Positions 1 to 22,871 of a stretch of DNA of 45,102 bases are shown in pieces (positions within the stretch are counted from its first letter, which is position 1; each line of letters begins with the position of its first letter). Made by a program: the position numbers and the translations under genes. The DNA is from a virus (Duplodnaviria; Caudoviricetes), in the IMG/VR virus record IMGVR_UViG_3300046779_001827, positions 1-45,102 of that record; one strand, 5' to 3'. The notes beneath the pieces are model-generated. The model was not told the DNA's origin and did no database searches. It worked only from the letters and a program-made list of their open reading frames with translations.

Positions 1-2
1 GA

Positions 3-52
3 CCAAACACGAGTCCCATCCCGAGCGAAGCGAGGGATGGGCGAGTGTTTGG
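3..52. repeat. Long imperfect inverted repeat (hairpin) with GCGAAGC at its tip
   Basis: CCAAACAC..CCCATCCC-GAGCGAAGCGA-GGGATGGG..GTGTTTGG; the arms pair directly. Confidence 0.8.
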
Positions 53-53
53 A

Positions 54-99
54 TAAAAGGGGGGTGTCCCCCGAAGAGAACTGAGTCTCTCCGGGGGAC
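54..99 (-). terminator. Probable intrinsic terminator after ORF 118-504
   Basis: GTCCCCCG-AAGAGA-actgag-TCTCT-CCGGGGGAC stem, followed on the minus strand by ACCCCCCTTTTAT. Confidence 0.55.
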
Positions 100-117
100 G
101 ATGGAAGCAGATGACCG

Positions 118-504
118 CTAGAAGGCGTCGTCGATGATGACGGTCGCGGGCGCATCGTCGAACTCGTCGATGATGACGGTCGGAGCGATGGGGGCCGGAG
201 CCTGTCGACGAACGGTGCCGTTGAGCCACACGGTCTGGCGGGGCTTCTTGAGAGCCACGATGGAACCGTCCTCGGCGATGTAGTCGGTCTCGACGTCCTC
301 GAACTTGAACGAGTCGGTGACGAGACGGTGCCACTTCGCGAGGGGCTTAGCGGGGTTGAACATGCCGAGGTCGATGAGCGTCGAGAGCGTGATCATCTTG
401 TCGACAGCGTCGCACATGAGGAGGACCTTGGTCTTGCCGGAGTCGGTGACCTGGTCTTCGCAGATGTGCGTGACGGTGAAGGTGAGTGGGGTGGATGTGG
501 ACAT
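118..504 (-). CDS. Hypothetical protein, 128 aa, with acidic duplicated tail (possibly SSB-like)
   Basis: AGGAGG RBS; beta-rich body; C-terminus TVIIDEFDDAPATVIIDDAF ends acidic plus Phe, like SSB tails (inference). Confidence 0.75.
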   Translation of the reverse strand: MSTSTPLTFTVTHICEDQVTDSGKTKVLLMCDAVDKMITLSTLIDLGMFNPAKPLAKWHRLVTDSFKFEDVETDYIAEDGSIVALKKPRQTVWLNGTVRRQAPAPIAPTVIIDEFDDAPATVIIDDAF

Positions 505-724
505 GTTGACCTCCTGGTCGGTTGTGGGCGGGATGCCCTTCTTTTCACTCGATGTGAACCTTTTGCGATTTTGGTTCTAGTCGAATGCATGGGGTCTGTT
601 TAGAAAGACCCTGCGATAGAGACCTATGGTCTATTGAGACTTGAGGTCTTTGCTCTACCATAAAAGAAAAGACCCCACCACACTGGCTGTGTGGCAGGGC
701 TTTTCCTGTAGATGGTCCGTCTGG

Positions 725-3064
725 TTAACGGTTGGTCTTTTGGTGGTCCTTCAGTGCTCGAATGAACCAGTCAACCGGCTGCTTCTCGATCTTTGCAGAG
801 AACGAGTACAGCCACTTGTCATGGTTGTTCGACGGGAACTTGTCCTTAGCCTCGAAAGCTGCACGAACCAGGATCAGAATCTTGCGATTCGTATACTGTT
901 CGCCCATCTCGGCATCAGAACGCTCCAGCATCTTCACGAAATCCTCGGCCCACGTCTTGGTGGACGCCTGGAAACGCTTGATTCTGGCAAGCTCACCCTT
1001 CATAGACGCAGTCTCTGCAGGAGTGAACTCGATGTTCTCGATGACGTCAGGCATAGTGATGTTGTTGTTCACCCAATCCACCATTTCAGAGATAGAACTC
1101 TTGACAAGAGCCTCTCGTTCACGGTGTAGAGCGATCCACTTTGAATCACTGATTTCACCCGAGTAAAGACCGAATTCCTCGGCGAGTTTGTCGAACAGTC
1201 TGGTTTCATACCAGAAAGCATCGATTTCTCCACCGGTTTCTTCAGCAATGATCTCGAATGTGTCTTTCACATTCTGTGCGATCAATGCAATGTCTTCGGA
1301 TGTGCCTGAGCCAGTCTGAAGAGTGTCGATGATGTCTTCGTTAGAACACACCTGATACTCTATGTGTCCGCCAACAAGGGCTGCATGCAACATCTTTGGG
1401 ATGGTTGCACCGCCAGTGCCAGCAGGAAACAGTCGACTAGCAGACCTGACTCTCTCTTCATCTTCAAGAGAGTAGATCTCGCCAAGCTTGAGGGACTTGG
1501 TACCGGGAAGTTCTCCAATATCCAACGTGTCCTCCACAGTGCTGTACTGAGGAACGAGCCTTTGCAGCTCATCCAAGTCCAGCTCTGGTGGATTGTCCGT
1601 GTATGTATGGAAAACCGGACCTGGCTTAACTACGGGGATGAAACTCCACTCACCAAATGCATTTGGATTGCGAAGGATCATTGCACCGAGTTGACCTTTA
1701 TTCGTACGAATCAAGATCTTGCCAGTATCGTCCTCATCCCAGCCACCATGGTTGGAGTAGTTCGCCTCGAAGAATTCGCCAGGAACCGCGAAACAGTGAG
1801 TCTTCTCATGAAAGAAGCCCCAAGGTTTCTTGGTAACAGGGAACCCAAAGAGTTGAAGTACCTCATGGGTGACCACGTGAGCGGCATAAGCCCAAGGCAC
1901 AGGGAACCAATGCCTAGACTTGTCTTCCCAAGACTCCAGTTTGCGGAAGTGTCCGTTCTCGTCCTCAACCGTTTTCTTGGTCAAGAGCTGCATCTTCAAA
2001 CCGTTCACGCTGTAAAACATGAGGGTCTGGCTAGCAGTGAGAGGGACGCCCAACTTGTCAAGTCGAGCAACCGCATTCTGGATGTGGTACACGAGACCAC
2101 GACCTGTATCGAACTTCTCTTCGATATCCTCATGAAGGATTTCGTCCTGATGTTCAATCAGCTTGGTAAGCCACTCGGAACGCTTGCCACTCTTCACATC
2201 TTCAAAGAATGCATTGAGCATGCTCTTCAGAGTGTTAATGAGCGAGGCGTCGTCGTAGAGCCCTTTCACACGCCAGTAGATGGAGTGAGACAGATCGTCC
2301 GACTTAACCGGAATTGCACCGTAAGAAGGATTGATCGTGATCCACTGCCATCCGCTAGTGTAGATTTCAGGCTTGATGTTCGGCTCAAACGTGAGCACAT
2401 CGAAACCCTGCATCTGCTTAGCTGGCAAGACCAAGGCGTTACCCTTGATCAAACCATACGGCGTGAGCATTCGGATTTCCACAACGGCTGTTACACCGGT
2501 GTGAATCTTCCAAATTTGTTGAGCCCTCCAGCGAGCTGAAGCGTTCGTGTTGGATTGGACACATCTGATAGCAAGGTTGCGGCTGATTGCCGAGATGCCA
2601 TCGACATACTTCTCAGGGAAGTTGTGGATAGGCATACCAACCTTGATCGAACCGTCCTCATCGAACAGCCAAGCACATGCCACGCGAGACAATTCTGCCA
2701 ATCGCTTAGACATTTTCTTGGAGTTCTTGATGAACAGTCCAATCTCCTTGAAGGAGCTGAGCCAGCCTTTGGTTCCCTTGATTCGGAGAACATACTGGTC
2801 AGATGCTGTGGACCACCGGATTTCCTCAGAGGAAAACTGGCAGTTGGTCGTAGCGGCGGGATCGCTCTTGAAACGACCCCATCGCTTTGGGTGAATCTTC
2901 CTCACTTCAAGCCGGTAACGATCCGGAAAGAAGTGGTTGAGGAAGGCGGGTTCGTAACTCCCGCTGTTGAACTCCTCAAGAACCTGATCGTTCTCGAGAA
3001 GCGGAGCTGACGTCAGCAGCCGAAGCCACATCTTTCCTCTCCTTACGATGCCGTGAAATGGCAT
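725..3064 (-). CDS. Putative single-polypeptide double-psi-beta-barrel RNA polymerase (YonO/RDR-like), 779 aa
   Basis: VDGISAIS...EIRMLTPYGLIKGNALV resembles the RDR/YonO DGxGxIS...QIRxxGxKG motifs; NHGGWDEDD resembles the catalytic GGxDxDGD; ILRNPNAFGEW resembles xRNPxxxxGD; AGGAGG RBS. Confidence 0.65.
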   Translation of the reverse strand: MPFHGIVRRGKMWLRLLTSAPLLENDQVLEEFNSGSYEPAFLNHFFPDRYRLEVRKIHPKRWGRFKSDPAATTNCQFSSEEIRWSTASDQYVLRIKGTKGWLSSFKEIGLFIKNSKKMSKRLAELSRVACAWLFDEDGSIKVGMPIHNFPEKYVDGISAISRNLAIRCVQSNTNASARWRAQQIWKIHTGVTAVVEIRMLTPYGLIKGNALVLPAKQMQGFDVLTFEPNIKPEIYTSGWQWITINPSYGAIPVKSDDLSHSIYWRVKGLYDDASLINTLKSMLNAFFEDVKSGKRSEWLTKLIEHQDEILHEDIEEKFDTGRGLVYHIQNAVARLDKLGVPLTASQTLMFYSVNGLKMQLLTKKTVEDENGHFRKLESWEDKSRHWFPVPWAYAAHVVTHEVLQLFGFPVTKKPWGFFHEKTHCFAVPGEFFEANYSNHGGWDEDDTGKILIRTNKGQLGAMILRNPNAFGEWSFIPVVKPGPVFHTYTDNPPELDLDELQRLVPQYSTVEDTLDIGELPGTKSLKLGEIYSLEDEERVRSASRLFPAGTGGATIPKMLHAALVGGHIEYQVCSNEDIIDTLQTGSGTSEDIALIAQNVKDTFEIIAEETGGEIDAFWYETRLFDKLAEEFGLYSGEISDSKWIALHREREALVKSSISEMVDWVNNNITMPDVIENIEFTPAETASMKGELARIKRFQASTKTWAEDFVKMLERSDAEMGEQYTNRKILILVRAAFEAKDKFPSNNHDKWLYSFSAKIEKQPVDWFIRALKDHQKTNR

Positions 3065-3210
3065 GTGTACCTCCTGGTACTATGGTGTGCCGAGGCCGTC
3101 GACACGCGGTTTTGGGCATATACAGAGACTTGAGGTCTTGTATCTACCAAAAAAGAAAAGACCTCCGTAGAGGTCTCTTCTCACCTTGTCTCGAAAGACT
3201 CAGTTGTTGG

Positions 3211-3897
3211 TCAGCAGGCGTTCTTCGCCTTGATGAGCTTGAGCTTGTCGATGGCTGCGGAAGCCCAGGTGATGGACTTGATTTCCGTGCCGTCGATGTG
3301 TCCGCGCATGGCCTTGACGAGGTTGTTGATCTCGTCCTCGGTCATGTGCTCCTTGACCTGCTTGAACAGATCGCGGATGAACTTGATCTGCGGCTCGCTC
3401 ATGGAACGAGTGCTCGACTGCTTGGTACCGGTACCCTTGCAGGTGAAGCACTTGCCGATGGAGCCGTCCTTGAGCGGGACGTTGTACAGACCGGTGCCGG
3501 AGCACTTCTGACAGGTGTTGGGTGCCATGGTGGTGGCCTCCTTCTTGTTGTTGTTGATGGGCGTGTCGAAGCCGTCCTCGATGATCACGATGACTTCTTC
3601 CTTGGGCTGGATTGCCTTCACGTTGTCCTCCTTGATGGACTTGTTGGTGGTCTTTTCTGCCGCCTTGGCCTTCTTGGCCTTCTCCTTCTGGAGAGCGATG
3701 TTGTTGCTGATGGCGTCCTCGATCATCTTGATCGTGGCTTCACCCTGCTCGAACGAGAAGATCTCGGTACCTGCGGTGTGCCGTTCGACTGCGCTACGCA
3801 AGTTGTTCATCTGACGTCCGTTGAACAGCTCTGCTGCACCCTGGTCGTCGAGGTACTGAAAGATCGTTGCGATCTGCTCGTTGGTCATTGCCTTCAT
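3211..3897 (-). CDS. Protein with DnaJ-type CxxCxGxG zinc finger and helical C-terminal domain (paralog of 4004-4474)
   Basis: CQKCSGTG...CFTCKGTG; start placed at the ATG after AAGGAGAAAACTACC. Confidence 0.85.
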   Translation of the reverse strand: MKAMTNEQIATIFQYLDDQGAAELFNGRQMNNLRSAVERHTAGTEIFSFEQGEATIKMIEDAISNNIALQKEKAKKAKAAEKTTNKSIKEDNVKAIQPKEEVIVIIEDGFDTPINNNKKEATTMAPNTCQKCSGTGLYNVPLKDGSIGKCFTCKGTGTKQSSTRSMSEPQIKFIRDLFKQVKEHMTEDEINNLVKAMRGHIDGTEIKSITWASAAIDKLKLIKAKNAC

Positions 3898-4003
3898 GGT
3901 AGTTTTCTCCTTGTTGTTTGGGCCTTGTGGCCTTGGTTCTACCAAAAAAGAAAAGACCCCATGAGGGGTCTTCTCTCATCATGCCCGAAGGCTTGATTGT
4001 TGA

Positions 4004-4474
4004 TTAGGCGTTGTTTGCCTTGATGGTCTTGAGCTTGTCGATGGCCGAGGATGCCCACTTGATCGACTTGGTCTCAGTGCCGTTGATGTGTGCCTGCATG
4101 GCCTTGACCAGGTTGTTGATCTGGTCTTCAGTCATGAACTGCTTGACGTCTCGGAAGAGGTCACGAATGAACTTGACCTGCTTGTCGGTCATGTTCTTGT
4201 CGTTCACCATCTTGGTGCCGGTGCCCTTGCAGGCAAAGCAGTTACCGATCGAACCGTCCTTGAGCGGAACGTTGTACTTCCCGGTACCCAGGCACTTCAT
4301 GCAGGGGTTGGTGTTGGTGGACATGGTGTTGGATGCCTCCTTGTTGGTTGGCTTGTTGTCGAGCAGGTACTCCCCGCAGATGTCGCAGTTCACCAAGTGT
4401 TCCTTGATGTTGCGAGTCCACGAATTGTGCTTGCACTCGGTGGTTGGCGTTGATGCCGTCATGGTTACCCCCAT
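4004..4474 (-). CDS. Paralogous CxxCxGxG zinc-finger protein (start may be 4462)
   Basis: CMKCLGTG...CFACKGTG; C-terminal ~100 aa closely match 3211-3897 (YNVPLKDGSIG, KFIRDLF, AIDKLK). Confidence 0.85.
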   Translation of the reverse strand: MGVTMTASTPTTECKHNSWTRNIKEHLVNCDICGEYLLDNKPTNKEASNTMSTNTNPCMKCLGTGKYNVPLKDGSIGNCFACKGTGTKMVNDKNMTDKQVKFIRDLFRDVKQFMTEDQINNLVKAMQAHINGTETKSIKWASSAIDKLKTIKANNA

Positions 4475-4569
4475 GGTTGTGAGACTTGGGTTAAGGTCTC
4501 TGGACTACCCATAAAGAAGAAACCCCCGAAGGGGTTGCTTCTCACCGTGTCCGAAGACTTGGTTATTTG

Positions 4570-4782
4570 TCAGTCGAACAGTGTCGGCTGACGCTTGATG
4601 TAGGCACGCTTGCTTGTGCCCTTGTTCTTGTTTGTCTGACGTGTGCGTGCACAGTCTGCGCAGAAAGTGTCCCATCCCTTAGGGCCCTTTGCGTCCGCAT
4701 TGACAAAGAGTCGAAACCCGTTGCCTTTGTAGACGAACTCTCCGCACTGACGACAGTGTCCGTTGTAGTCATTCCAAGCCAT
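4570..4782 (-). CDS. 70-aa zinc-finger protein with C-terminal QPTLFD (beta-clamp-binding-like)
   Basis: AAAGGAG RBS before MAWNDY; CRQC...CADC. Confidence 0.75.
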   Translation of the reverse strand: MAWNDYNGHCRQCGEFVYKGNGFRLFVNADAKGPKGWDTFCADCARTRQTNKNKGTSKRAYIKRQPTLFD

Positions 4783-4801
4783 TTCTGGCTCCTTTCTTTG
4801 G

Positions 4802-5017
4802 TTAGGCGATGTAGTCGTTCTTGCGCAGCCACATGTTGAGCCACGCACGAGCCGATTTTTCATCGGTTACGCCATCTTGCTTCTTGGGAGACTTGGTTTC
4901 TCCATCTACGACAGCGAAGAAGCCGATTGTATTGCTCCACTTGAGAACAACCAGTGTCTTTTCTTCTCCAGGAACACGAGGCCCCACCTTCGCAGAAGCG
5001 ATGATCTTTGTTGTCAT
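4802..5017 (-). CDS. Hypothetical protein, 71 aa
   Basis: Same AAGGAGAAAACTACCATG leader as the gene starting at 3897. Confidence 0.8.
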   Translation of the reverse strand: MTTKIIASAKVGPRVPGEEKTLVVLKWSNTIGFFAVVDGETKSPKKQDGVTDEKSARAWLNMWLRKNDYIA

Positions 5018-5139
5018 GGTAGTTTTCTCCTTTGTTCGGACCTTGCGGTCTTTGATCTACCAAAAAAAAGAAGATCCCTTTCGGGATCTCCTTCTTCATC
5101 CAGACACTTAAGTCCGGGAATGTCACCAGCTTTCTTTAA

Positions 5140-5466
5140 CTAGCTGTTAGGGCACTTGCCTTCGACGAGGAAGCGCTTGCTACGCATGCATCCGTACTCC
5201 TCGATTCGACCCACAACCTTGCGGTAGTGGATTCCATCTCCCGGAATTCGAACGTATGGCTTCTGCAGGATTCCTCCGACAATTCTGCCGACACCCCATG
5301 CAATGTCAGACAGCTCGTCTTTGAACTCATCCATGTTCTTGACTTCCAGAAGCTCGTAGAATTCTCCACGTAGCTTACCGTCAACCAACTCACGGCTGAA
5401 GAGGTCAGCGACCCCATCCTTCCAAGAACGGACGTCCATGCATCCGCACCAGTGAACCTGTTTCAT
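5140..5466 (-). CDS. MazG-like all-alpha NTP pyrophosphohydrolase-like protein
   Basis: GEFYELLE...EFKDELSDIAW resembles the ExxE...ELxD pattern; AAGGAG RBS. Confidence 0.5.
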   Translation of the reverse strand: MKQVHWCGCMDVRSWKDGVADLFSRELVDGKLRGEFYELLEVKNMDEFKDELSDIAWGVGRIVGGILQKPYVRIPGDGIHYRKVVGRIEEYGCMRSKRFLVEGKCPNS

Positions 5467-5572
5467 GGTTCTCCTTTTGTTTGGGTCAGGCCTTGTGGCC
5501 TAGTTACTACCCAAAAAGAAGAGACCCCCTAAGGGGCCGCTTCTCACCATGCCTCGAAAGGCTAGGTTGTTG

Positions 5573-6124
5573 TCAGTTGAGTGATGGATTGAACGGAAGA
5601 TCTCCGAATTCTTCGTCAACGAAGTATCCGCAGTGACAGCCGTCATCATCCAATGGTCGAATCGCTGTGCACATTGGGCACGTCCAGTGACAATCACAGT
5701 ACAACTTCTCTTCTGAACGAAGTTCTCCACAGGTCATGCAGAAAGACATGCCTTCGATTTGCTTGCAGCGTGGAAAGCTTTTGTTCATTCGATCTTCTTC
5801 ATACTTGGCAATTTCATTCGCCACTTGAATGAGAAGATCTCGATCAGTCACCCATGTGCTTCCGAAGTCCTTGACCAGGGAACAGTGCACTTCGTCGTAG
5901 TTGTGGTAATCCACCAACCACAGAGAGAAGTTCCATTTCTGGTCCTCACCTCCAAATGCCTTGTCCCACGATTGGACGACGACATGGTGTCCCATGTATC
6001 CGTGATCCATCCACAGTCTTGGAAAAGCGGTGAATCCCAACTTGGTCAAGCTCTCGTCACCGATGTCTGTCTGACGAAGGCCGAGAACAACCTCTCGTAG
6101 TTGCTTCCATCTAGGTACCCACAT
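5573..6124 (-). CDS. Hypothetical protein with C-terminal Cys-rich zinc ribbons, 183 aa
   Basis: CMTCG..CDCHWTCPMC..CHCG; AGGAGG RBS. Confidence 0.8.
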   Translation of the reverse strand: MWVPRWKQLREVVLGLRQTDIGDESLTKLGFTAFPRLWMDHGYMGHHVVVQSWDKAFGGEDQKWNFSLWLVDYHNYDEVHCSLVKDFGSTWVTDRDLLIQVANEIAKYEEDRMNKSFPRCKQIEGMSFCMTCGELRSEEKLYCDCHWTCPMCTAIRPLDDDGCHCGYFVDEEFGDLPFNPSLN

Positions 6125-6224
6125 AGTGGTTCCTCCTTTTCTTTGGGTTAGACCTTTGTGGCCTATTTACTACCCAAAAAAGAAGAACCCGACTCTGCAC
6201 AGCCGGGTACTCCTTTTTATTTAT

Positions 6225-6605
6225 TTATTTGTTGTTGTTCCAGCTGACAACTGGACGGATGTTTCCGTTGAAGTCAGCGTGTTGCTGTACACCTGACCAA
6301 CGCCAGATGTCGCCTTTGCCACCGTGTCCCATCTCTGGATCACCGCCCGTCTGAGCAATGATCTGCAAGATGAATGCAGGGTTGAACATGATTGGTCCAA
6401 CCACTTCGGCAAGGGTGCGTTCACCGCCATTGGCATGGACATACATGCTGCGAATGACAGTGTTCACGTAGTGAGGCTCTTCCAACACAAAGACCTCGTA
6501 GAACATTGGGCGATGAACTCGCGCAATGAACTCTTCGTTGTCTCCTGCAATGGAGAGGATGGTTTGAATGAAGGCGTAGATAGCCTTCGGGGTTTGTGGT
6601 GCCAT
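6225..6605 (-). CDS. Hypothetical protein
   Basis: AGGAGGAG RBS before MAPQTP; fills one repeat-bounded unit. Confidence 0.75.
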   Translation of the reverse strand: MAPQTPKAIYAFIQTILSIAGDNEEFIARVHRPMFYEVFVLEEPHYVNTVIRSMYVHANGGERTLAEVVGPIMFNPAFILQIIAQTGGDPEMGHGGKGDIWRWSGVQQHADFNGNIRPVVSWNNNK

Positions 6606-6777
6606 GACTCCTCCTGAGTATGGTCTGTGATGAGATGCGCTCATCGACGCAGGCTAATGCACGTGCAGGTGCAGCATTTAAAGATCTAAGATCTACCTAA
6701 AAAGAAGAAACCCCTTTCGGGGCTCCTTCTCCAGGAGATCGCGACTCTCCCTAGTTGTGAATGAAGTTTTGTTTACT

Positions 6778-7059
6778 TCAGCTGTTGCTGACGAACTCGT
6801 CGTACTTCGAACGGAGTTCCTTGTGTCGAGAAACGATCTTCTCGAGCTTGATCGATGCCTGACGGTTGCTTTCCTTGGCTGCGTTGAGCATTGCCTCGTA
6901 CTTGGCCAGTTCCTCGCCGGTCATCAGTTCCATCTCGTTGGTGATCTCTTCGATCTCCTGAGCTGTCACATCGACTGTGAGCTGCATCTTCTTCTGCTGA
7001 GCCCATGCCTTCAGGATCGAATCCTTCATTGCCTGGACGTATGCCTGCTGAATGTTCAC
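6778..7059 (-). CDS. Coiled-coil hypothetical protein, 93 aa
   Basis: GGAGGTAAAAC-GTG start; heptad-like sequence. Confidence 0.8.
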   Translation of the reverse strand: MNIQQAYVQAMKDSILKAWAQQKKMQLTVDVTAQEIEEITNEMELMTGEELAKYEAMLNAAKESNRQASIKLEKIVSRHKELRSKYDEFVSNS

Positions 7060-7180
7060 GTTTTACCTCCGTGAATCTTTGGTTTAAGTGGCCGGATGGC
7101 TACCCAGAAAGAGAAAACCCCTTTCGGGGTCTCCTCCTTCTTCCAAACACTTAAGTCTGGGAATGTCGTGATGCGTCAGG

Positions 7181-7540
7181 CTACGAACGCGAAGCGATCG
7201 TGATCTTTGCCTTGAGGGCAGCTGCCTTGCGCTTCTGTGCCTGGAGCTTCTCGCGGGTGCTCAGCATGCTCTCTTCGTACATCTGGATGTCCTGCTGGAG
7301 ATCGTTGATGTGGTCGAGCAGCTCGTTCTCGGTGGGGAGAACTGCCTTGCCGTCGAAGACCATGACGGTCTTGATGCCCTTCTTGACGCGGAACAGCTTG
7401 ACGATGGACTCGTCGAGAGCCTTCTTGGAGTCCTCGATCAGCTGCGTGAGGACCGCGATGTCCTTCTGCAACGGCTCGACGTGCTCCTGCTCGTAGCTGT
7501 TCTTCTGCTGGGTGAGTTCCCAGATCTTCTTGATGTCCAC
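7181..7540 (-). CDS. Coiled-coil hypothetical protein, 119 aa
   Basis: Same GGAGGTAAAAC-GTG start; upstream leader nearly identical to that of 6778-7059. Confidence 0.8.
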   Translation of the reverse strand: MDIKKIWELTQQKNSYEQEHVEPLQKDIAVLTQLIEDSKKALDESIVKLFRVKKGIKTVMVFDGKAVLPTENELLDHINDLQQDIQMYEESMLSTREKLQAQKRKAAALKAKITIASRS

Positions 7541-7673
7541 GTTTTACCTCCGTGGTTTGTTGGTTTAGGTGGCCGGATGGCTACCCACAAAGAAAGAACC
7601 GTGCTGGCTGCACGGCTCTTTCATTCTCGTTGGTTGAATAGGACAAAGGTTTCGGTTTCCCTACTTCCTGAAG

Positions 7674-8234
7674 TTACCTCGAAGATACGACCTTCACCTC
7701 AAACTTCTTGCGAAGCTCTGATGACGGAACGACATTCTCCCAGATCTCGCGTTCACCAGTCACGAATGTAACAGGTGCCGAGTTGAAGAATTCGTTGCTC
7801 TCTAGGATGGCAGTGGTTGTGGCCACTGCGTCCTCGCGGTCATACCACATGTTGACGGGACACGAATCCTGATTCTTCTGAAGGAATTCTGACCACTCGT
7901 TCTTGGGAATCGAGTTCAGCTTTCCTTCCGAGAAGGTCTTGATATAGTGTCCAGCCAGGCTCCGGCTCAGCTTTGTAAACATCTCGTTAGCATAGAGATC
8001 CTGCATTGCTGAGTGGTCCATGAGGTAGCCGAACTGCCGAAGCAGCTGGGCTTTCTGGATGCCTGCCTTGGCAGCCGTAATAAACGCTGTGTCCACCACG
8101 TGCTTGGAGAAGTACAGCACAGGGATTGCGCCGTTCTCCGAGATTTCGTTCTCCACGTCCATCAGAACGTCGAGTCCGTCGTGGCGGTACACGACATTTA
8201 CGTCGGGCACCAGCAGGCGAAGAGTGCCTTTCAT
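7674..8234 (-). CDS. PIN-domain (VapC-like) nuclease-like protein, 186 aa
   Basis: LLVPDVNVV (cf. vlDTNvl), DREDAVATTTA (cf. D..Da.i.A.A), VTFVTGERE (cf. lvTxD). Confidence 0.55.
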   Translation of the reverse strand: MKGTLRLLVPDVNVVYRHDGLDVLMDVENEISENGAIPVLYFSKHVVDTAFITAAKAGIQKAQLLRQFGYLMDHSAMQDLYANEMFTKLSRSLAGHYIKTFSEGKLNSIPKNEWSEFLQKNQDSCPVNMWYDREDAVATTTAILESNEFFNSAPVTFVTGEREIWENVVPSSELRKKFEVKVVSSR

Positions 8235-8360
8235 AGCATTCTTCCCCTTTCGGTTGTGACCACCTGGGTTATTTGTGGTCTGGTTACTACCCATAAAGAA
8301 GAAACCCACCAGTCCGCGTGGACGACCGATGGGCTCCTTCTTATCTGTTTTTGTTAGTGA

Positions 8361-8534
8361 CTACGAAAAGTCGCGGTCACCCTCTAGTGCTGCGTTCACG
8401 ATCAAACGCTGTAGATCCTGCAGCATGTTGAGATCATGCTTTGAATCTTTGATTTGTTCTTCGATTGCTTGCTTCTGGGCTTCCAGCAGATTGATCTCTG
8501 CTTTTCTCGCCTGAATGCGGCTCTCTAGGTTCAT
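8361..8534 (-). CDS. Small coiled-coil protein, 57 aa (not in ORF track)
   Basis: Read manually: MNLESRIQARKAEINLLEAQKQAIEEQIKD...; AAAGGGG RBS; fills one unit. Confidence 0.75.
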   Translation of the reverse strand: MNLESRIQARKAEINLLEAQKQAIEEQIKDSKHDLNMLQDLQRLIVNAALEGDRDFS

Positions 8535-8660
8535 TGTTTGCCCCTTTCAAAGACAAACCACGCTGTTGGGCAGCCGACCTCTTTTGAGGTCTACAAGCTA
8601 CCCATAAAGAGAAAACCGCACTGGATGTACGGTTCTCTCTCCTGAGGATGCAGTGTTAAA

Positions 8661-9167
8661 CTACTTCTTCAGCTTTGACTTGACGCCCCACTCGTGGCCA
8701 CGGTAGTGGTCAGTCTTTGTGGCGATGCTGTCTTGGATCTCGAAGAGGAGCTCTTGAGCTTCTTCGATTGCTTCTTCAGCCTTCTGCTGCTGGTCGTTCC
8801 AGAAAGCAATCATTTTCATTGCCTGCTGTGACTGAGTCTTGTCGCTCATGTCGTACGTCCAGCTGTCGAATCCCACGAAACAGCAAACCAGTTGATTGGT
8901 CTGCGTGTTGTAGTGGAACACGGGCTGAGCCTTCTTTGGGCGAGGAATTGCACGCTTTGCGACAGGAACCACGATGGGTTCGTCGATTGACTGCCATTCT
9001 CCGACCAAGTCGGCGACCATCTCAGCGAGTTGGTTGGTACGTGCGATTGTCGGAGTAATCGTCTTGTCGACGACCTCCTGCAGCTCGGCACGGAACATCC
9101 ACCTCATGACTGGGATGGTGATGAGCATCAACAGCGCGTAGGCTGCGATGAAGGTGATGGTTGCCAC
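8661..9167 (-). CDS. Membrane-anchored hypothetical protein, 168 aa
   Basis: N-terminal hydrophobic helix; AAGGAGG RBS with GTG start. Confidence 0.8.
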   Translation of the reverse strand: MATITFIAAYALLMLITIPVMRWMFRAELQEVVDKTITPTIARTNQLAEMVADLVGEWQSIDEPIVVPVAKRAIPRPKKAQPVFHYNTQTNQLVCCFVGFDSWTYDMSDKTQSQQAMKMIAFWNDQQQKAEEAIEEAQELLFEIQDSIATKTDHYRGHEWGVKSKLKK

Positions 9168-9298
9168 GATGGGCCTCCTTTTTTTGTTGGTTTATCTGAT
9201 GACAGATAGGCCACCCTTTTGGGTCTTAAACCTACCCATAAAGAAAGAACCCCATTTGGGGTCCTTTCTCCGGGATCGTTATCCCTGGTCGTGAGTTG

Positions 9299-9688
9299 TC
9301 AGCTCTTCTCGAACTCGAGCTTTGCCTTCTTCTCCTTGACGACCTTGATCTGCGCCAGCTTTGCTGCGTCGAAGCACTGGTTGATCCAGAGGACTCGACT
9401 TTGGTAGCTCTCGGCATCCGAGACTTCGTGCCTGGCTCCGTCGAACCAGTGTCCGAAGGTCCTGGAGCTGACGTCGGCGAGACCGAAGATGTGTGCGTTG
9501 AAGCTCTTGTCGTAGACCTTCCATGCCTTCTCTTCGTAGTCGCGAGCCTTCTCCATGTTGGAGTTGGCGTTGCGTGCGATCATCATCAGGATCGACAGGA
9601 GGATCTCCTGAACCTTCTTGATATCGCTGTAGAGCTCGAATGCGGACTGGTACTCCGCCTCTGCTCGCTGGATGGATGAGTGACGCAT
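9299..9688 (-). CDS. Helical hypothetical protein
   Basis: GGAGG RBS before MRHSSI. Confidence 0.8.
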   Translation of the reverse strand: MRHSSIQRAEAEYQSAFELYSDIKKVQEILLSILMMIARNANSNMEKARDYEEKAWKVYDKSFNAHIFGLADVSSRTFGHWFDGARHEVSDAESYQSRVLWINQCFDAAKLAQIKVVKEKKAKLEFEKS

Positions 9689-9831
9689 GTTTATTACCTC
9701 CATGCGGTTATCTGAGTGGCAAGATGAGGTTCTTCCACATCTTGGGGCTTGTTTACTACCCATAAAGAAGAAACCTTCTCACACCGCGCGAACGTGTGAA
9801 AAGGTTCTTCTTGTCGATGATCAGCTAATTG

Positions 9832-10041
9832 CTAGCTGACCTTGTCGTGCGAACGACCGCAGGCCTCGCACTTCATGTCGTCGGATGACCAGACGACGGG
9901 GGTGGACAGCTTGTTTGCTGCGTCACCGAGGTTCTGCTTCAGAACCTGGAGGTGCCAGGTGCAGAGAAGCAGGTTCAGGGCATCCGCGTCCTTGCGGAAG
10001 TGGATGCTGTGGATGGGACGGGTGTTCTTGCTTGAAGCCAT
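9832..10041 (-). CDS. Small putative zinc-binding protein, 69 aa
   Basis: AAGGAGG RBS; CTWH...CEAC. Confidence 0.75.
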   Translation of the reverse strand: MASSKNTRPIHSIHFRKDADALNLLLCTWHLQVLKQNLGDAANKLSTPVVWSSDDMKCEACGRSHDKVS

Positions 10042-10163
10042 GATGGCCCTCCTTGTTTGCAAGATCGCGCTGTTGAATAGGCAGGTCCTCCCTTTGAGGA
10101 CTTAAAACTATTCATAAAAAGAAAAACCACACTGGCTGTGTGGTATTCTTTTTGTAGAAGCCT

Positions 10164-10304
10164 CTACTTGTGGTTGCGGGGCTTCACGTTGTGGTTGGGG
10201 ATGTGCCTCCAGTGGCGGCGGGTCTCGAAGCAGTCGTGCTCCTTGAACCTGGGGTGGACGGGCTGCTGGAACGGCAGCACCGGGTTGTTCTTCTTGTACG
10301 CCAC
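10164..10304 (-). CDS. Small basic His-rich protein, 46 aa (not in ORF track)
   Basis: Read manually: MAYKKNNPVLPFQQPVHPRFKEHDCFETRRHWRHIPNHNVKPRNHK, after GGAGGTAAAAC-GTG. Confidence 0.7.
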   Translation of the reverse strand: MAYKKNNPVLPFQQPVHPRFKEHDCFETRRHWRHIPNHNVKPRNHK

Positions 10305-10418
10305 GTTTTACCTCCGTGGTTCGGGTCAGACCTTTTGGTCTATTTACTACCCATAAAAAGAAAACCCCCGGGAACCGAAGTCCCCAGGGGAAAGATTTTC
10401 TTTTTTTGTTCGTGCTTG

Positions 10419-10649
10419 TTAGCACTTGCCCAGCATGATGTCCTCGAGGTGACGACGAAGGGTGCTCTTGTACGAGGGCTCAGCCTCTTCGACCATCTTG
10501 TCAGCGATGGCGTACGCCTGCTTGGACATGATGATGCTGCGGAAGAAGTCCTTCTTCTTGAAGTACTCCTGCTGCATTGCGAGAGACCACCTCAGTGACT
10601 CGAAAGTCGCTTCGATTGTCTCCTCACCGGGAGTGATGAATGTTGCCAT
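10419..10649 (-). CDS. Hypothetical protein, 76 aa
   Basis: AAGGAG RBS; fills one unit. Confidence 0.8.
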   Translation of the reverse strand: MATFITPGEETIEATFESLRWSLAMQQEYFKKKDFFRSIIMSKQAYAIADKMVEEAEPSYKSTLRRHLEDIMLGKC

Positions 10650-10802
10650 GGGTATTTTCTCCTTTTTGTTTCAGGGGCCTTAGCCCTACCCATAAAAGAA
10701 AAACCTCCAAGGATTACTCCTCAGAGGTATTTCTTTTGTGCACTTGTGAGTAATAGAGGTGTGCAATTCCTCCAGATAGGGTATTAGCCCTACGCGACAC
10801 GA

Positions 10803-10988
10803 CTAGCGGTTGAGCATCTCGATGCTCCAGCGGTACGTGAGGGGCGTCTTCTCGTTGAGAGCGAGAATGCGTCCCTGTCCGTGCTGCTGACACGCGTCGT
10901 TCCAGCCATTCCGGCAGGTGCAAGCGTCGTAGTTAACGCCATCGCACTCTGCGCAGCAGGTGGCCGAATCGCAGTGGATCTTGGTCAT
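10803..10988 (-). CDS. Small Cys-rich protein, 61 aa
   Basis: AAGGAGGTG RBS; CCAEC, CTC...C..HG. Confidence 0.75.
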   Translation of the reverse strand: MTKIHCDSATCCAECDGVNYDACTCRNGWNDACQQHGQGRILALNEKTPLTYRWSIEMLNR

Positions 10989-11114
10989 TTCACCTCCTTT
11001 CCTTTGCTATAGGTGAATGAATGATCCCTTCTTGATAGATGACCTACATGATCTACAATCTATCTACAAAAGAAAAACCCCGGTTCTGTACAACCGAGGT
11101 AATTCTTTTGTTTA

Positions 11115-11390
11115 TTAGGCGTCGAGCTTGTCCGTCAGCCACGCCCATGCACCGGTCCAGGCGCATGCGATGAGCGTACCGACGAACGGCACGAGGGCCC
11201 ACCATGCGGAGGTGGAGTTCTCCGAGATGTGGACCGCCACGCCGATGAAGATGGCGATGAGCGGCAGGAACGTGAAGAACCCGACGAACCCGGTCACCTT
11301 GGCGCGGATGTTGTTGGTGTCGATCGTGCCGATCAGGCCGATCATGATGTTGAGAGCGATCGCGTACACGATCAGGAAGGTGTTGGACAT
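11115..11390 (-). CDS. Small membrane protein (about 3 TM)
   Basis: AGGAGG RBS before MSNTF; three hydrophobic segments. Confidence 0.8.
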   Translation of the reverse strand: MSNTFLIVYAIALNIMIGLIGTIDTNNIRAKVTGFVGFFTFLPLIAIFIGVAVHISENSTSAWWALVPFVGTLIACAWTGAWAWLTDKLDA

Positions 11391-11628
11391 GATTCCTCCT
11401 AGGAACATGTTAATGCGTAAACACGGGATGTGGATACGACTACTTGTACTATCAGTTGCCCGTTAGGGTCCAGTTTGTACTATCGCTAGTTATAAGCGCC
11501 TTTTTTATGGTTGAAATGGTAAACCGTTACGTGCGTACAGGCACGGGATAAAGGTCGTTAACCTACCCATAAAAAGAAAAAGCGTAAAACTACACTGGCT
11601 GTGTAGCATACGCTTCTTCTTTATTTAA

Positions 11629-11964
11629 TCAAGCTGTCTTACGAATCGACTGCTCGAAACGGTACATGTCCGAAGACACAACTCGCATTCTACGAGAAGC
11701 ACGGCGAAAATCAATTACGCAATTGATGATCATGATTACTGCAAACACGATTGCAGCAACGCCAGCAACGCCATGGAACAACAGGAAGAACATGCCTTCT
11801 GTTGAAACTGTGTATCCAAAGTACAGGTAGCTAGTGATAGCAACCAAAGCTGTACCGAGGAACATCATAACGATAGCGGCAATAGTATTCTCTTTCACGC
11901 TATACATCTCTGCATTTGCGCGATTGATATCTTGCCTTACCATTTGGATTGTGAAAATGTCCAC
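11629..11964 (-). CDS. Membrane protein (about 2 TM), 111 aa
   Basis: AGGAG RBS with GTG start; two hydrophobic segments. Confidence 0.75.
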   Translation of the reverse strand: MDIFTIQMVRQDINRANAEMYSVKENTIAAIVMMFLGTALVAITSYLYFGYTVSTEGMFFLLFHGVAGVAAIVFAVIMIINCVIDFRRASRRMRVVSSDMYRFEQSIRKTA

Positions 11965-12171
11965 TGTTTTCTCCTAATTAGGAATGCATATATACACGAT
12001 GTATATATGACTACTTCTGTACGACGCCGAAGCCAGCGTGCTGCTTAGCCCATAAAGGACACGGACGCACCGTAAGTATGGCCTTAGCCCTACCCATAAA
12101 AGAAAAACTCCTTTCGGAGTCTTTCTCTTCTTCCAGGTACTTAAACCCGGGATGATCCATACTGATAAATA

Positions 12172-12474
12172 TCAGTACTCTGCTGCTTCTTCGCAAGACG
12201 CACACCAGTCGCCATAACTGACAACAGGTGTTTCATCACACTTGTAGCATTTTGCAGCACATGCAACGTGCTCAGCTAAGAACTGTGTCTTTGCTTCGTG
12301 AGAAACAGGGACGTAGTAATCGTCCTCATCTTCCCACTGCAAAACTTCAGTCGCAAACCTGGAACCACAATTGCAGATCCATGTTACTGGCGCAAGGCGT
12401 CCCTGCGAGTCGTACTCAGACTCTGGATAACGCCCTATCCGTGTTGCATGGATGGATTCCGAAAGTGTGTACAT
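12172..12474 (-). CDS. Zinc-finger hypothetical protein, 100 aa; first gene of the leftward block
   Basis: AAGGAG RBS before MYTLSE; CNCG, CYKC, CASC. Confidence 0.75.
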   Translation of the reverse strand: MYTLSESIHATRIGRYPESEYDSQGRLAPVTWICNCGSRFATEVLQWEDEDDYYVPVSHEAKTQFLAEHVACAAKCYKCDETPVVSYGDWCASCEEAAEY

Positions 12475-12569
12475 TGCACACTCCTTTTCTTTCAGTATTT
12501 GAACGCAACTGAAACAGCGTAGATACCCATACCCCGGTGGCCTCGTTAAAGGTTTGCGGGACAACGTAT

Positions 12570-12680
12570 ATCCATAGGTACCCCCCTGAAAATTTTCCCT
12601 AAATTCCATAGGGTATGAATTTTATATAACCCTTTATAGGTTCAAAAATTTTTCCTAGAAATTTCCCCATATAGGTTGCA
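12570..12680. repeat. Imperfect tandem duplication with A/T tracts at the GC/AT boundary
   Basis: ATAGG at 12574, 12608, 12636 and 12671; unit ATAGG..AAAATTTT(T)CC..AAATT(T)CC..ATAGG occurs twice with a period of 62-63 bp. Confidence 0.7.
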
Positions 12681-12756
12681 AGGCCGGCGAAACACTGATA
12701 GTTTTTCTCTCACTGGTAACAGCCAGTAAAAACCACTACAAACAAAGGAAAACAAA

Positions 12757-12918
12757 ATGGCCCGCAAAAAGACACAAGTAGAAGATATGCCAATCTTAGA
12801 ATCTATTGAAGAGATAGAAGACTTCGTAGAGGCTTATACCATCGGAGGTTTCGATGCCTATAGAGATGCCTATGATGACATGAACTTCGATATGGACAAC
12901 TACGGATACGATTACTGA
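12757..12918 (+). CDS. Small acidic protein, 53 aa (not in ORF track)
   Basis: Read manually: MARKKTQVEDMPILESIEEIEDFVEAY...DY; AAAGGA RBS. Confidence 0.65.
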   Translation: MARKKTQVEDMPILESIEEIEDFVEAYTIGGFDAYRDAYDDMNFDMDNYGYDY

Positions 12919-12970
12919 TATCCCCATAGATTTTTTTATTCAATTAAAACAAACGTAGAAAGAAAAACAA

Positions 12971-13522
12971 ATGACCACAATGCCTAATAACACAATGGTA
13001 GCTTCAAGTAAACTTTTCAGAACAAAAGCACCATGGAGAATTAATGGATCCCTAATGGGACAGATAACAAAAGACCATGATGTCATATTGTTTAGTCATG
13101 ACTCAGGAGAGACAACATACGAACATATGTCAAAAAAAATAGGTAGATACCTCTACCACAGAGTTCAAAGAGAAGTTCAACATCTAACCTTTGTAGGTTA
13201 TGAACATGAGTGTAGATTAGTGTCTGATCTGTATGTAACTATGGGATTCAAGTTTGATACTGCGATTTTGATCAACAACATTCATCCACACTCTGTTTAT
13301 GATGCGATCTTGGGTCACACAAAGATTTATAACTTCTGGACAAAGACAGATGACTCATATGGTCCAATCAATGGAGCTGAAGAGAATCAGTACGTAAAAA
13401 CACTGATGCCAGCCCACATGTCCAATAGGCTGGCATCAGAGGTTAGTGGTTGTTTGATCTATGGCTCTTATGAAAAGAACTACTTAGAAAACAACAAACC
13501 TGTATTCAATTATGTAAGCTAG
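12971..13522 (+). CDS. Hypothetical protein, 183 aa (possible degenerate alpha/beta-hydrolase fold)
   Basis: ORF; HLTFVGYEHE...FDTAILIN resembles the hydrolase strand pattern but lacks the catalytic Ser. Confidence 0.65.
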   Translation: MTTMPNNTMVASSKLFRTKAPWRINGSLMGQITKDHDVILFSHDSGETTYEHMSKKIGRYLYHRVQREVQHLTFVGYEHECRLVSDLYVTMGFKFDTAILINNIHPHSVYDAILGHTKIYNFWTKTDDSYGPINGAEENQYVKTLMPAHMSNRLASEVSGCLIYGSYEKNYLENNKPVFNYVS

Positions 13523-18541: not shown

Positions 18542-19253
18542 TATAGAAAAATCAGATGACAAAAATTCTTTTATGAAAAATTTTGAGTCTTTAAGACCAG
18601 ATTTATTCTTTCCAGAAACTTGGACAGATGAAGATAAAGAAAAAGCAATAGATTTAGTTAGACCACAAAAAACTAGAAACTCTATGTTTTCTTCAATACC
18701 CATGAATTGCGAAGCCGAGAAATGCATTTTTGCATCTACTTGCCCACTACTTAAAGAAAGTCTTGCTCCCAAAAATAATCCATGTCCAATTGAGATGTCA
18801 ATGGTTTCCCAATTTACAGCAGAGTATATGCAACAATTAGATGTCAATCCAAATAATCTTGTAGAAGTTTCTATGGTTAGAGATTTGGTAGACCAAGAAA
18901 TACAGTACATGAGAAAAACAAAACTTTTAGCAAAAGAACATTTCATTCAGGAAAATGTTATTGGAGTAGATCAAGATGGTCAACCAATTCTTAAGAAGGA
19001 ACTTCACTTAGCAGTTGAGCTAGAAGATAAGCTTCACAAAAGAAGAAAAGATCTAAGAAACCAACTTCTTGCAACTAGAGAAGCTAGAGCAAAAGTTGGT
19101 CAAGTACAACTTGATACAGCCCAAGCTATATCTGAGATTATTGATAAAGTACAGGCAATTGAAAATCAAAGAGATAAACTTCTTAAGCAAAAACTAGGAA
19201 CATACGAAGTTGACGACTACATAGAAGCGCAAACGGTTTCTGAAGATGGCTAA
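18534..19253 (+). CDS. Hypothetical protein with Cys cluster and coiled coil
   Basis: C..C..CP..CPIE motif; start placed at MSNIEK, coupled to the previous gene. Confidence 0.75.
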   Translation: MSNIEKSDDKNSFMKNFESLRPDLFFPETWTDEDKEKAIDLVRPQKTRNSMFSSIPMNCEAEKCIFASTCPLLKESLAPKNNPCPIEMSMVSQFTAEYMQQLDVNPNNLVEVSMVRDLVDQEIQYMRKTKLLAKEHFIQENVIGVDQDGQPILKKELHLAVELEDKLHKRRKDLRNQLLATREARAKVGQVQLDTAQAISEIIDKVQAIENQRDKLLKQKLGTYEVDDYIEAQTVSEDG

Positions 19254-22200
19254 TTTATTTGATCTGCACGCACAAGGCCTAATTAAGCCATTATCTCAAA
19301 TGAGAAATATGGGATCTTCTTTACCAGTTGATGCAGCTTCTATGATAGCTAAAAATATGGATAAACCAGTTTCATCTGGGCTTGGATTAACAGAGATTTG
19401 GGGCACTCCCGATATATTTTTAGAAAAATACAAAAATATTAATGATACATATTTACAATTATTAGATCAAGAATTAACAGCTCCTGGCATTAGTGAAGTA
19501 AAAAGAAGAATGTTAGAAGTGCACAAAAATGCGCCATCTATGAACTTTAGAGTTCTTTCATATCAAAATCAGCAAACGATGAAAGAGATGCTTAGAGGTA
19601 CCGATGGAATGAATATAGAAGCATTAATAGCACAACATGGAGCACCAGGAATGCTTCTGCCGTCAGAAAACCAGTATAGGTTAAATGGAAGAATTTTAAC
19701 CGACAACAGTAGGGGACGTCATCCCTTTATTGAATTTTTAAATTCTCTTCATTTTAGTACGGACACTCGCATACCGGGAATTAATTCAATAGACATAGGT
19801 TATTCAAATCTTCCAAGTTATGAAGCATTAAAGTCTGCCTATGAGCAGGGCCCAGATCTTACAAAGGTAATGCAACAAATTCAAAATTCAAGAAGAGCAG
19901 CAAAACTTTTTATTTATGACACAGAAACAACAGGGCTTGGTGTTTTTTCAAAAGTTAGAAACTTAGGAGCAGTTTCTACAACAGTAAACCTTAGCCCTTC
20001 AGGAGCAATGCAGTTTGGAAATATGAATACAATAATTAGCACTCATATGGCATCTTCTGAAATGGCAGAAATGATAGCTGTACAGCCAGGTTCTAGAATG
20101 AAAATACCATATTCTGAATACGCTTTTGGAAAAGAGAAAGTTCTTCCAACAGATGAGCTTTTTGACCTTTCAACCAAAGAAGGAAGACTAAAGTCCGTAA
20201 ATGCATACAAAAACTTTTTTGAATCAGCACTTCAGCATGATTATATTGTTGGTCACAATATAAATTTTGACATTCAAAAAGTGATGATGTCTGCTTCTCT
20301 AATAGAAGAATTTCACGCTGATGATGATGCAGTAAGGTTAATGGTTGATTTTGCGGAAAAAATAAAAAGAGGAGAAGTAATCAATACTTTGGACCTACTA
20401 CGTGGAAGCCAGATGCAACAGGCTCTTGAATCGGCAAGAGCAGCTGGACTTACGGGAGCAGATGCAGATAGGTTTGCAGAAAAGTTGATTGGCACAGTAT
20501 TTAGTGAAAAGTCTTTGGGTAAAATGGGCTTTGCAAATGTTGCTCCAGCATCAATAGAAAATGCACTATTGAGCTCTAATCTTATAGACTTAATTGAAGC
20601 TGATGGCACAGAAGGAGCTGATCTTGTTAAAAGGCTAGCTGCAGGAAAAACTCACGAGTCAATTACAGACGCAAAAATAACCGGATATATTTTAAGGTTT
20701 GTTCAAAATGGAGATTTAAGATGGGGGTCTCCGAGCACAAGTCCAAACGCAAATAAAGCAGCGTTGGCAGTAATGAAATCATCCGCTTACGTTTCTACAA
20801 CTAGCTATTCAGATGTTCAGGAGATGACAGGAGCAGCATTAAGGTACTCTCAAACAGATGAAGGAATGAGAGGTGCAAGGATTTATGATGATGCAAGAGG
20901 AGAAATAATTTCATATAACAAAAATAAAAAACAATGGACAGGAAGAAGGTTAGGTTTAGATGGATCAACTATAGAAAATATTATTCCAGATTCTGTTGCA
21001 GAACCTAAAGTTAAGGCTGCAATTGAAGCTTCAAGACTTGGTAACGATTCAGAATTATTTAATTTTAATTTTGGTTTCCTACAAGCGTCTAGAGCAGAAC
21101 AAGTGTTGGATAATGTTGGAGTAATAGCATCAAACATATCAGCAACGGTAGGAAGTGGAGCAGGTAGAGTAAGAGCAACAGCTTCAGGACTTTTAGCGGG
21201 CGGAGATACCGCGTTAGACGACGCATTTATTAGAGCTCTTGGTTCTACTCAAGAAGAAATTGGTTTTAATTTTTATTATGATTCTCATACACTTCCATCA
21301 GCAATGAGACAAGCAATGAATGAGCCGTTTGAAGTTACAAGCGCAGCACAAAAAGCTGCATATGTTCAAAGATTAGCAGAAGGGGGAATAGCTAACTCGC
21401 TGCTAGATCCCACTATAAGAAGGTCTGCAGTAGAGTTTGCTAGAATTACTAGTCAGGTTCCTTACCTTAATAAAAATATAGATGCAACCGGAGCTGTAAG
21501 AAGAAAAATTACTAAAAAATTTGAAGCAGAAGTAGCAGCTGGGGCGATGCAGCAAGATCAGCTCGATGAACTGATTTCCCTATCAGACGAAGACTTTAAT
21601 GCAAAGTACGCAACTGCAATATCTACCTATAATACAAACGCTGCTCAAGTTTCTAGAGCAGCAGCGGAATTGGGAGGAGGCTTTCTTCAGACTCAAAAAT
21701 CTGTTCAAATATTTAATAGAACTGGAGGAATATCTGTCATAGCAATACCTGAACAAATAGCTAGTCAAATAAATGTTACTGTCGGAGGAAGGCAAATAGG
21801 ACTTTCAAGCGATGAATTTCTTAAAGACAGAAGTTTAAATAGATTTAGAGTTTCAATAGCAGAAACAGAAAACGCAAAGTACGCAAACATAGTGATGGGC
21901 GATCATATGGCAGATACAAAAATTGAAAGAAAAATGGCACAAGAAATATCAGAACAATATCTTCAGATATTAAAGGACACAATTGAATCAACTGATGAAG
22001 TTGATCTTTTAGAAAGTGGAATGTTTGTTTCTTCTGAGCAAGTAAAAGAAGTCAGAGCAGCTTTGTCTACAAAAGAATCAATGGATCAAATGGCATCCGA
22101 TATTGCAGATTCTATTTCTGAACGAGGATTTATACGCGCAACAATTGGTGGAGACGTAGGAACAGCAGAATATGACGTTGCGTCCGCACTGCAAACAATG

Positions 22201-22869: not shown

Positions 22870-22871
22870 TT

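Follow-up and report, generated by a model that had tools for sequence, protein, structure and literature searches.

A shuffled array of single-gene cassettes with terminator-like junctions and a probable two-barrel RNA polymerase gene in a family of uncultured lake phages

The window, a single virus record of 45,102 bases (IMG/VR record IMGVR_UViG_3300046779_001827; all numbering refers to its full length), carries in its left 12.5 kb an array of single-gene cassettes, likely the earliest genes to be expressed, separated by conserved junctions, among them a gene for an RNA polymerase-like protein of 779 amino acids (aa), hereafter polymerase A. The right part encodes RecA, a ClpX-like ATPase, terminase, portal, major capsid and fibre genes. 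IMG/VR phages of ~200 kb, several of them complete, are colinear with the record, which, judging from its sequence, is a piece of a ~200-kb myovirus genome. G+C content is higher in the left 12.5 kb than in the remainder, and the genes there have a higher third-position G+C (0.46-1.0 in the cargo genes vs 0.18-0.48 in the structural half).

The array and its junctions

The array comprises 22 co-oriented genes on the minus strand, running from 12474 down to 118, which agrees with the roughly 22 genes estimated in the first-pass annotation. Twenty of them lie directly behind a junction; the first gene (12172-12474) and the gene at 4570-4782 have none in front. Apart from polymerase A (725-3064) and the last array gene (118-504, 128 aa), these are 20 small cargo genes (3211-12474), for which no convincing Pfam or PHROG name was found.

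All 20 junctions are on the minus strand and share one register. Numbering the G of TAG as position 0 (window 655-12090), an upstream hairpin ends at -18 and is followed by a T tract from -17 to -8, TGGG or a variant of it, TAG from -2 to 0, five free bases and AGRYC from +6 to +10. Given in order of transcription, with the position of the TAG G and the gene behind each in brackets, they span 12080-12119 (12090; 11629-11964), 11553-11614 (11563; 11115-11390), 11050-11099 (11060; 10803-10988), 10676-10727 (10686; 10419-10649), 10337-10390 (10347; 10164-10304), 10098-10144 (10108; 9832-10041), 9746-9804 (9756; 9299-9688), 9222-9261 (9232; 8661-9167), 8588-8632 (8598; 8361-8534), 8277-8333 (8287; 7674-8234), 7571-7615 (7581; 7181-7540), 7090-7129 (7100; 6778-7059), 6683-6722 (6693; 6225-6605), 6160-6207 (6170; 5573-6124), 5497-5537 (5507; 5140-5466), 5047-5089 (5057; the two-gene unit 4802-5017 and 4570-4782), 4495-4536 (4505; 4004-4461), 3929-3977 (3939; 3211-3897), 3134-3182 (3144; the polymerase gene) and 645-699 (655; 118-504). 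The first consists of a hairpin and T tract followed by TATGGGTAG-N5-AGGCC, and variant cores occur in the third (TGTAGATAG) and the sixth (TATGAATAG). TTT at -10 to -8 and TAG at -2 to 0 are each present in 20/20 junctions, GGTAG in 18/20 and GGGTAG in 13/20.

A weight matrix covering positions -18 to +10, scanned over both strands of the whole window, recovered exactly these 20 sites and none outside the array, which bears out the earlier description of single-gene cassettes with 20 terminator/TGGGTAG junctions. Leave-one-out scores ranged from 19.7 to 37.0 bits, compared to a maximum of 16.4 in shuffles, and 100 block shuffles of positions 1-13000 yielded 0.02 matches per shuffle. Within 1-13000, 37 terminator-like sites were found vs 12.7 expected, and hairpins are predicted at 20/20 junctions. 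Sigma-70-type sites number 4 in this region vs 8.4 expected, and none lies inside a junction, as the first-pass annotation had noted for the elements themselves; a T at the equivalent of position -7 is present in 5/20 junctions. Based on this deficit and the lack of boxes, recognition of the junctions through sigma-70 or sigma-A was rejected.

The same anatomy extends to 167 distinct junction sites from 20 loci, in which TTT is conserved at 99-100% and TAG at 94-99%. An upstream hairpin is present in 159/167 sites and ends at -18 in 126/139 folded sites. The remaining 8/167 were scored as lacking a hairpin, most of them clearly so, and retain the T tract and the core. Furthermore, purines are conserved 6-8 nucleotides (nt) downstream of TAG, and the 25 nt downstream of TAG fold at -4.5 kcal vs -2.3 kcal in shuffles. 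The short hairpin predicted after the core is common, although not universal, with a folding energy of 0 kcal at two sites of the window. An obligatory hairpin of the N4 type at this position was considered and rejected, as pair covariation was weak (best z 4.1) and several sites did not fold. A search for structured RNA families gave a single Rfam match, at E 0.063 and below the gathering threshold.

In three complete or near-complete relatives, 9/11, 14/15 and 21/21 matrix matches lie together at the polymerase gene, in a single cluster and orientation. When 2.9 million viral contigs were scanned for exact matches, 11 were hit, all from the same phage group: nine with the polymerase, one ending before it and one with a replaced polymerase. 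Isolated 19-mer matches in 10 unrelated contigs had neither the hairpin nor a match to polymerase A. By their sequence, then, the junctions are predicted intrinsic terminators fused in fixed register to a conserved core, and this core is likely a phage-specific restart promoter. Three expression runs gave one 40-nt partial match, which speaks neither for nor against this.

Exchange of cassettes and the head element

Comparison with relatives revealed that the junction cores are crossover points at which whole units are added, removed and reordered. One case is locus L088, whose polymerase is 99% identical to that of the window and which lacks the window unit 10803-10988: its single junction at this place combines the hairpin of site 11060 with the leader of site 10686. 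Among four close genomes, 101 junction comparisons and 91 mid-gene controls were made. The former gave 23 identical junctions, 5 clean chimeras, 42 cases with one half shared only (9 of them borderline) and 31 with nothing shared; the latter gave 36 continuous, 4 one-sided and 51 unshared cases. Thus, the partner was switched at 47/70 junctions with a shared half vs 4/40 mid-gene controls. In a stricter test, 22/75 block ends were no more than 25 nt away from a site vs 8.8% expected, although many block ends are not true breakpoints. Unit order changes among relatives as well. Gene shuffling at the junctions had been one of several options raised by the first-pass annotation, and the comparison of related genomes that it recommended shows gain and loss of whole units with the crossover in the core. 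Judging from the L088 junction and the chimera comparisons, a unit extends from one core to the next and includes the leader before the gene and the terminator after it.

We presume that ordinary short-homology recombination is the mechanism; RecA was the only recombinase noted, no search having been made beyond it. In locus L091, two cores lie 27 nt apart (1628 and 1655) with no gene between them, resembling the scar of an empty cassette. The neighbouring window genes 3211-3897 and 4004-4461 (minus strand) are paralogous cassettes with a zinc-finger-like CxxCxGxG segment and 68-86% DNA identity to the copies of relatives, consistent with duplication of a unit.

These observations also bear on the suggestion that the core is an RNA-processing or purely recombinational signal, with one transcript from the head of the array being cut into hairpin-protected single-gene RNAs. 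The stable fold downstream of TAG and the location of the crossovers would suit such a role, as would relatives that have no junctions and in which the genes between the head element (see below) and the polymerase still form an unbroken run. However, a hairpin followed by a T tract has the canonical shape of a terminator, and in the close pair L284 and L286 the gain of a unit by one genome brought both terminator and core with it. Moreover, sites devoid of a hairpin keep the core, and conservation skips +1 to +5 and resumes at +6 to +10, a pattern that homogenisation alone would not yield. We therefore consider this explanation improbable.

Upstream of the first array gene lies a single-copy head element (12525-12550, minus strand) that consists of TTTAACG-W-G-S-CCAC followed by two G-or-C runs around AT. 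The first-pass annotation had taken TATGGGTA at 12524-12531 for a core free of a terminator. It is instead the right half of the head element, is devoid of TTT, the final G and AGRYC, and varies in 2/3 close relatives aligned. That the core can be separated from termination is thus not supported by this site; the 8 hairpin-less sites described above do support it. The head element is found once in 33/50 loci (L003, L005, L008, L015, L016, L280, L286 and others), junction-less loci included, and homology with close relatives breaks at it. Its G/C runs come in four different combinations, including two that are reverse complements, which suggests a genome end, a packaging or cut site or an inversion site. 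Alternatively or in addition, the element may serve as the primary start site. Upstream of it, phased A/T tracts and CCTAT repeats were observed (12560-12680).

Polymerases and the motifs they may read

By its predicted fold, polymerase A is a single-chain two-barrel RNA polymerase, in line with the earlier annotation of a polymerase-like gene inside the array. The model (predicted local distance difference test, pLDDT, 91.7) matches QDE-1 (Foldseek E 1.5e-7), RDR2 (Z 12.8, 572 residues aligned, root-mean-square deviation (rmsd) 5.9) and the P23-45 proteins gp64 (Z 9.6, 400 aligned, rmsd 5.1) and gp96 (Z 8.0), and isolated matches to the double-psi barrel (DPBB) lie at about 130-245. The catalytic loop contains invariant D443, D445 and D446, followed by R465-x-P467; it reads DxDD and departs from the canonical DxDxD. 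Fold and conservation together suggest that the protein synthesizes RNA. It has 126 homologues, and 276 clusters are reached by profile; DxDD is present in 127/151 family representatives and DxDGD in 2/151. A sister clade, A', carries DxDGD, which would link the DxDD and DxDxD forms. No sequence match was obtained in Pfam, PHROG, NCBIfam or PDB, nor by tblastn among 50,697 GenBank phage records. Look-alikes in an atlas search were labelled RNA-dependent RNA polymerase at 0.83-0.87, which we regard as a lead only.

A second motif, AAWAGAAGGG, begins right after gene A. Its first copy (AAAAGAAGGG, 536-545, minus strand) is a likely promoter for polymerase A and, like the last junction, precedes the last array gene, a homolog of which lies behind polymerase A in relative G001. 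Every match in loci L001-L027 is downstream of A and co-oriented with it. In 3/3 genomes the motif also precedes a second polymerase gene, B. It was found in 29/31 A loci, both misses ending within ~200 nt of the gene, and in 0/18 loci in which the distant A' enzyme (21-23% identical to A) occupies the same slot. These A' loci (e.g., G007 20308-22959, corresponding to L094 and P0201, and L280-L297) keep the junction motif and carry, by subclade, AAAATAGGGG, AAAAGGGGG or GAATAAGT at the place of AAWAGAAGGG. Tandem copies of the second motif were seen in L005 (13481-13556; four copies at 25-nt spacing) and L016 (14406-14475).

Both TATGGGTAG and TATGRCTAG serve as junction core with A as well as with A', and thus on either side of the long branches that separate the two enzymes in a quick tree (17 A rows, 9 A' rows). 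Because A'-bearing relatives keep the junction core and change the second motif, A tracks the second motif and not the junction. It is therefore very probable, as far as sequence comparison can tell, that polymerase A does not read the junction, contrary to the first-pass annotation. That polymerase A reads the junction itself, either packaged or first made by read-through, would fit the position of its gene within the array behind a junction, and motif and A-family gene occur together in the nine of 11 scanned contigs mentioned above. However, with a row of terminators in front of gene A, the enzyme would have to be packaged in order to produce the first transcript of its own gene, and A is also kept in L014 and L015, which have no junctions, and in G031, with 0 genome-wide. 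With the same cores accompanying two such divergent enzymes, we consider this reading highly unlikely. The expectation that array and polymerase always go together has likewise to be qualified in part: A can be replaced by A', and A occurs without junctions.

Which enzyme, then, would read the junctions? Three paralogous polymerases were found in eight genomes (G001-G004 and G031-G034), the remaining records being fragments. B (~850 aa, 22-24% identical to A) lies about 14-16 kb beyond A. C (1,250-1,770 aa) is encoded among the tail genes, between sheath and baseplate genes. Deep profiles match C across both barrels (E 4e-11, 2e-10 and 7e-6), and G(G/T)FDLDD..R.P, comprising the loop and the following R-x-P, is present in 11/11 genomes examined by motif. 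Following the logic of the P23-45 virion polymerase (see below), C is the best candidate for the junction reader, which we propose tentatively. In G002, G003 and G004, the C-terminal part of C is a separate overlapping open reading frame (ORF) in the tail module (e.g., L059 5906-9976 and 9927-11165); many homologues of ~1,750 aa are in one piece, so that a frameshift or split is possible in these genomes. A 3,450-aa tail-module protein was rejected as a fourth polymerase, with GGDxDD in only 58/120 homologues, hhalign probability <1% in five windows and PHROG matches to an endolysin-labelled family.

Several observations weigh against assigning the junctions to C, or to a phage enzyme at all. 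The model of C is of lower quality (pLDDT 67.8), its match to QDE-1 is weak (Z 4.3, 388 aligned, rmsd 6.0), the hhalign probability is 34.9 and Foldseek returned nothing at E <= 0.001. Its presence in the particle is suggested by the position of the gene between sheath and baseplate genes. Furthermore, the TATGGGTAG core accompanies C cores that are only 20-22% identical (G020 vs G001-G004; the G020 terminase row, a wrong ORF, was left out), and no covariation of the junction core with C was seen, while A and A', at a like distance, differ in motif. G031 (97% complete) has C and no junctions. The fixed register could reflect common descent by recombination, and the locus set includes near-identical pairs, so that independent cases are fewer than the counts. 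Finally, three SigB-family promoters in Streptomyces have GGGTAG as their -10 element, GGACAT and GGTAAG being variants (PMC8346170, Table 2).

The last point leads to the main alternative explanation, in which the junctions are read by the host RNA polymerase, carrying a sigma factor of the SigB/SigF type. GGGTAG would be its -10 element, a normal -35 would be absent, and the enzyme that has just terminated would perhaps re-initiate; A would then read the second motif and C would have another job. The conserved purines downstream of TAG and the persistence of the core where A has been replaced or C has diverged deeply fit this idea, as does the host. The host is likely an actinobacterium of the Acidimicrobiia, to which most of the best genome matches of the window RecA belong (55-61% identity, among the matches listed), and relative G003 encodes WhiB alongside tail sheath, baseplate J, DnaE and an Rpf-like transglycosylase. 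Moreover, two Ilumatobacteraceae genomes encode ~260-aa sigma factors that match the SigBFG model below its cut-off. However, no SigBFG match exceeds this cut-off in 5/5 genomes, GTTT or GGWWT lies 13-17 nt before the hexamer in 0/20 window sites, and cores such as GCCAATAG are devoid of the G run. The invariant TTT and the T at -2 are not SigB features according to the accessible part of PMC8346170. TTTWTGGGTAG is present in 0-1 copies in 4/5 Acidimicrobiia genomes; the fifth, G014, has 17 vs 6 for the reversed control, several near contig ends. Overall, we regard a SigB/SigF-type reading as rather unlikely.

No distinct motif was found after gene B. A third motif, TTACTATA, stands upstream of co-oriented genes in 29/75 cases vs 4/69 for the reversed word; its genome-wide count equals that of shuffles, and the word fits TANNNT. 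Sigma70_r2 had no match in 5 phage records. A conserved sigma-like ORF of ~190 aa with a weak region-4 match is present outside the early region in G001-G003 (G003 41860-42450, i.e., L052 1860-2450; 82% identical in G002) and may encode a reader of late promoters.

Other genes of these phages were recorded in passing. The window encodes a 1207-aa protein before the terminase (19246-22869, plus strand), which has a YDTETTG word and no family match; it was rejected as a polymerase, the DxDxD word of one relative not being conserved. We take the YDTETTG word to resemble the DEDD exonuclease motif. A small protein with a PASTA domain match is encoded among the fibre genes (42675-43061, plus strand). 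In G003, adjacent ThiF, JAB and AAA genes form a ubiquitin-like conjugation cluster (84604-91773, L054), and six consecutive 2OG-Fe(II) oxygenase genes, accompanied by two glutathione peroxidase-like genes, adjoin the tail module (160555-169716, L058).

A possible polymerase relay and its relation to known systems

Taken together, our preferred model, which we hold with somewhat less than even confidence, is that a virion-carried paralogue reads the terminator-restart junctions, so that each gene is its own transcript and the core doubles as exchange point. Polymerase C of the tail module would enter with the DNA and start at TTT-N-TGGGTAG, probably at the conserved purines. From the anatomy of the junctions, the next hairpin with its T tract would stop the enzyme, which would restart at once. 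The last units would yield A, which, as its covariation with AAWAGAAGGG indicates with good confidence, would read this motif over the next ~14 kb, including gene B. Recombination in the ~19-nt core, as the comparison of relatives shows, adds, removes and reorders units, each with its own 5' leader and 3' terminator. An extended version, a relay of three polymerases with the shortened DxDD active site in ~200-kb lake actinophages in which the injected enzyme gives way to A and A to B, with B reading late TTACTATA sites and A having been swapped in nature together with its promoters as a set, so as to yield matched pairs of enzyme and promoter, appears doubtful.

Literature searches found no paper on this phage family, most subscription papers and supplements lying outside their coverage. 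The closest parallel for the cassettes are the PeSL elements of the T4-type phages RB49 and phi1, in which promoter-plus-terminator elements flank single small early genes (PMC2839356, accessible part). As in those phages, genes of the present array are exchanged by crossover inside the intergenic element, and a stem-loop terminator is predicted in it. However, PeSLs have sigma-70 -35/-10 boxes and a stem-loop of varying position, whereas the present junctions are devoid of sigma-70 boxes, keep to a single register and share a core of 19 nt, and one of the units they delimit contains a phage polymerase gene.

For transcription, the closest parallel is Thermus phage P23-45, with gp96 as virion and gp64 as non-virion polymerase. 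According to the accessible part of PMC10770324, an AT-rich motif marks 14 start sites among about 20 pre-early genes and is recognised by the virion polymerase. One of these genes encodes gp64, which in turn uses a second motif throughout the region beyond. Both phages thus seem to have a pre-early cluster that includes a gene for a non-virion two-barrel polymerase and a second motif downstream. They differ in that three paralogues are present here instead of two, with DxDD in place of DxDxD, and canonical hairpin-T terminators in place of a 26-nt motif. Furthermore, the candidate virion enzyme, proposed from its gene position, has here a gene of its own in the tail module, and the phage is contractile-tailed; sequence searches gave no similarity between polymerase A and the P23-45 polymerases. 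The best structural matches, QDE-1 and RDR2 (PF05183 fold), cover nearly the whole chain of polymerase A; at about 10% identity, with no Pfam match and with the shortened catalytic loop of most family representatives, it is nevertheless distinct from them. SigB/SigF promoters share the GGG-N-A-N fit of GGGTAG and the likely start distance (PMC8346170, accessible part), and differ by a -35 at the right distance, which no window site has, and by the upstream TTT that is invariant here.

Because it has no sigma-70 boxes, no DxDxD and three enzymes, the array is a member of neither the PeSL nor the P23-45 type as defined, resembling the former in shuffling and the P23-45 pre-early region in transcription logic. 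New here are the polymerase-swap comparison, the three-enzyme census and the head element. The natural swaps offer pairs of enzyme and promoter that can be tested (AAWAGAAGGG for A, three other motifs for the A' subclades) and hence a direct route to promoter recognition by sigma-free two-barrel polymerases and to the activity of the DxDD loop, while a terminator and start site locked 17 nt apart make the coupling of termination and re-initiation testable. PeSL-type shuffling and a P23-45-like polymerase relay, known from separate phages, appear joined in one abundant uncultured family.

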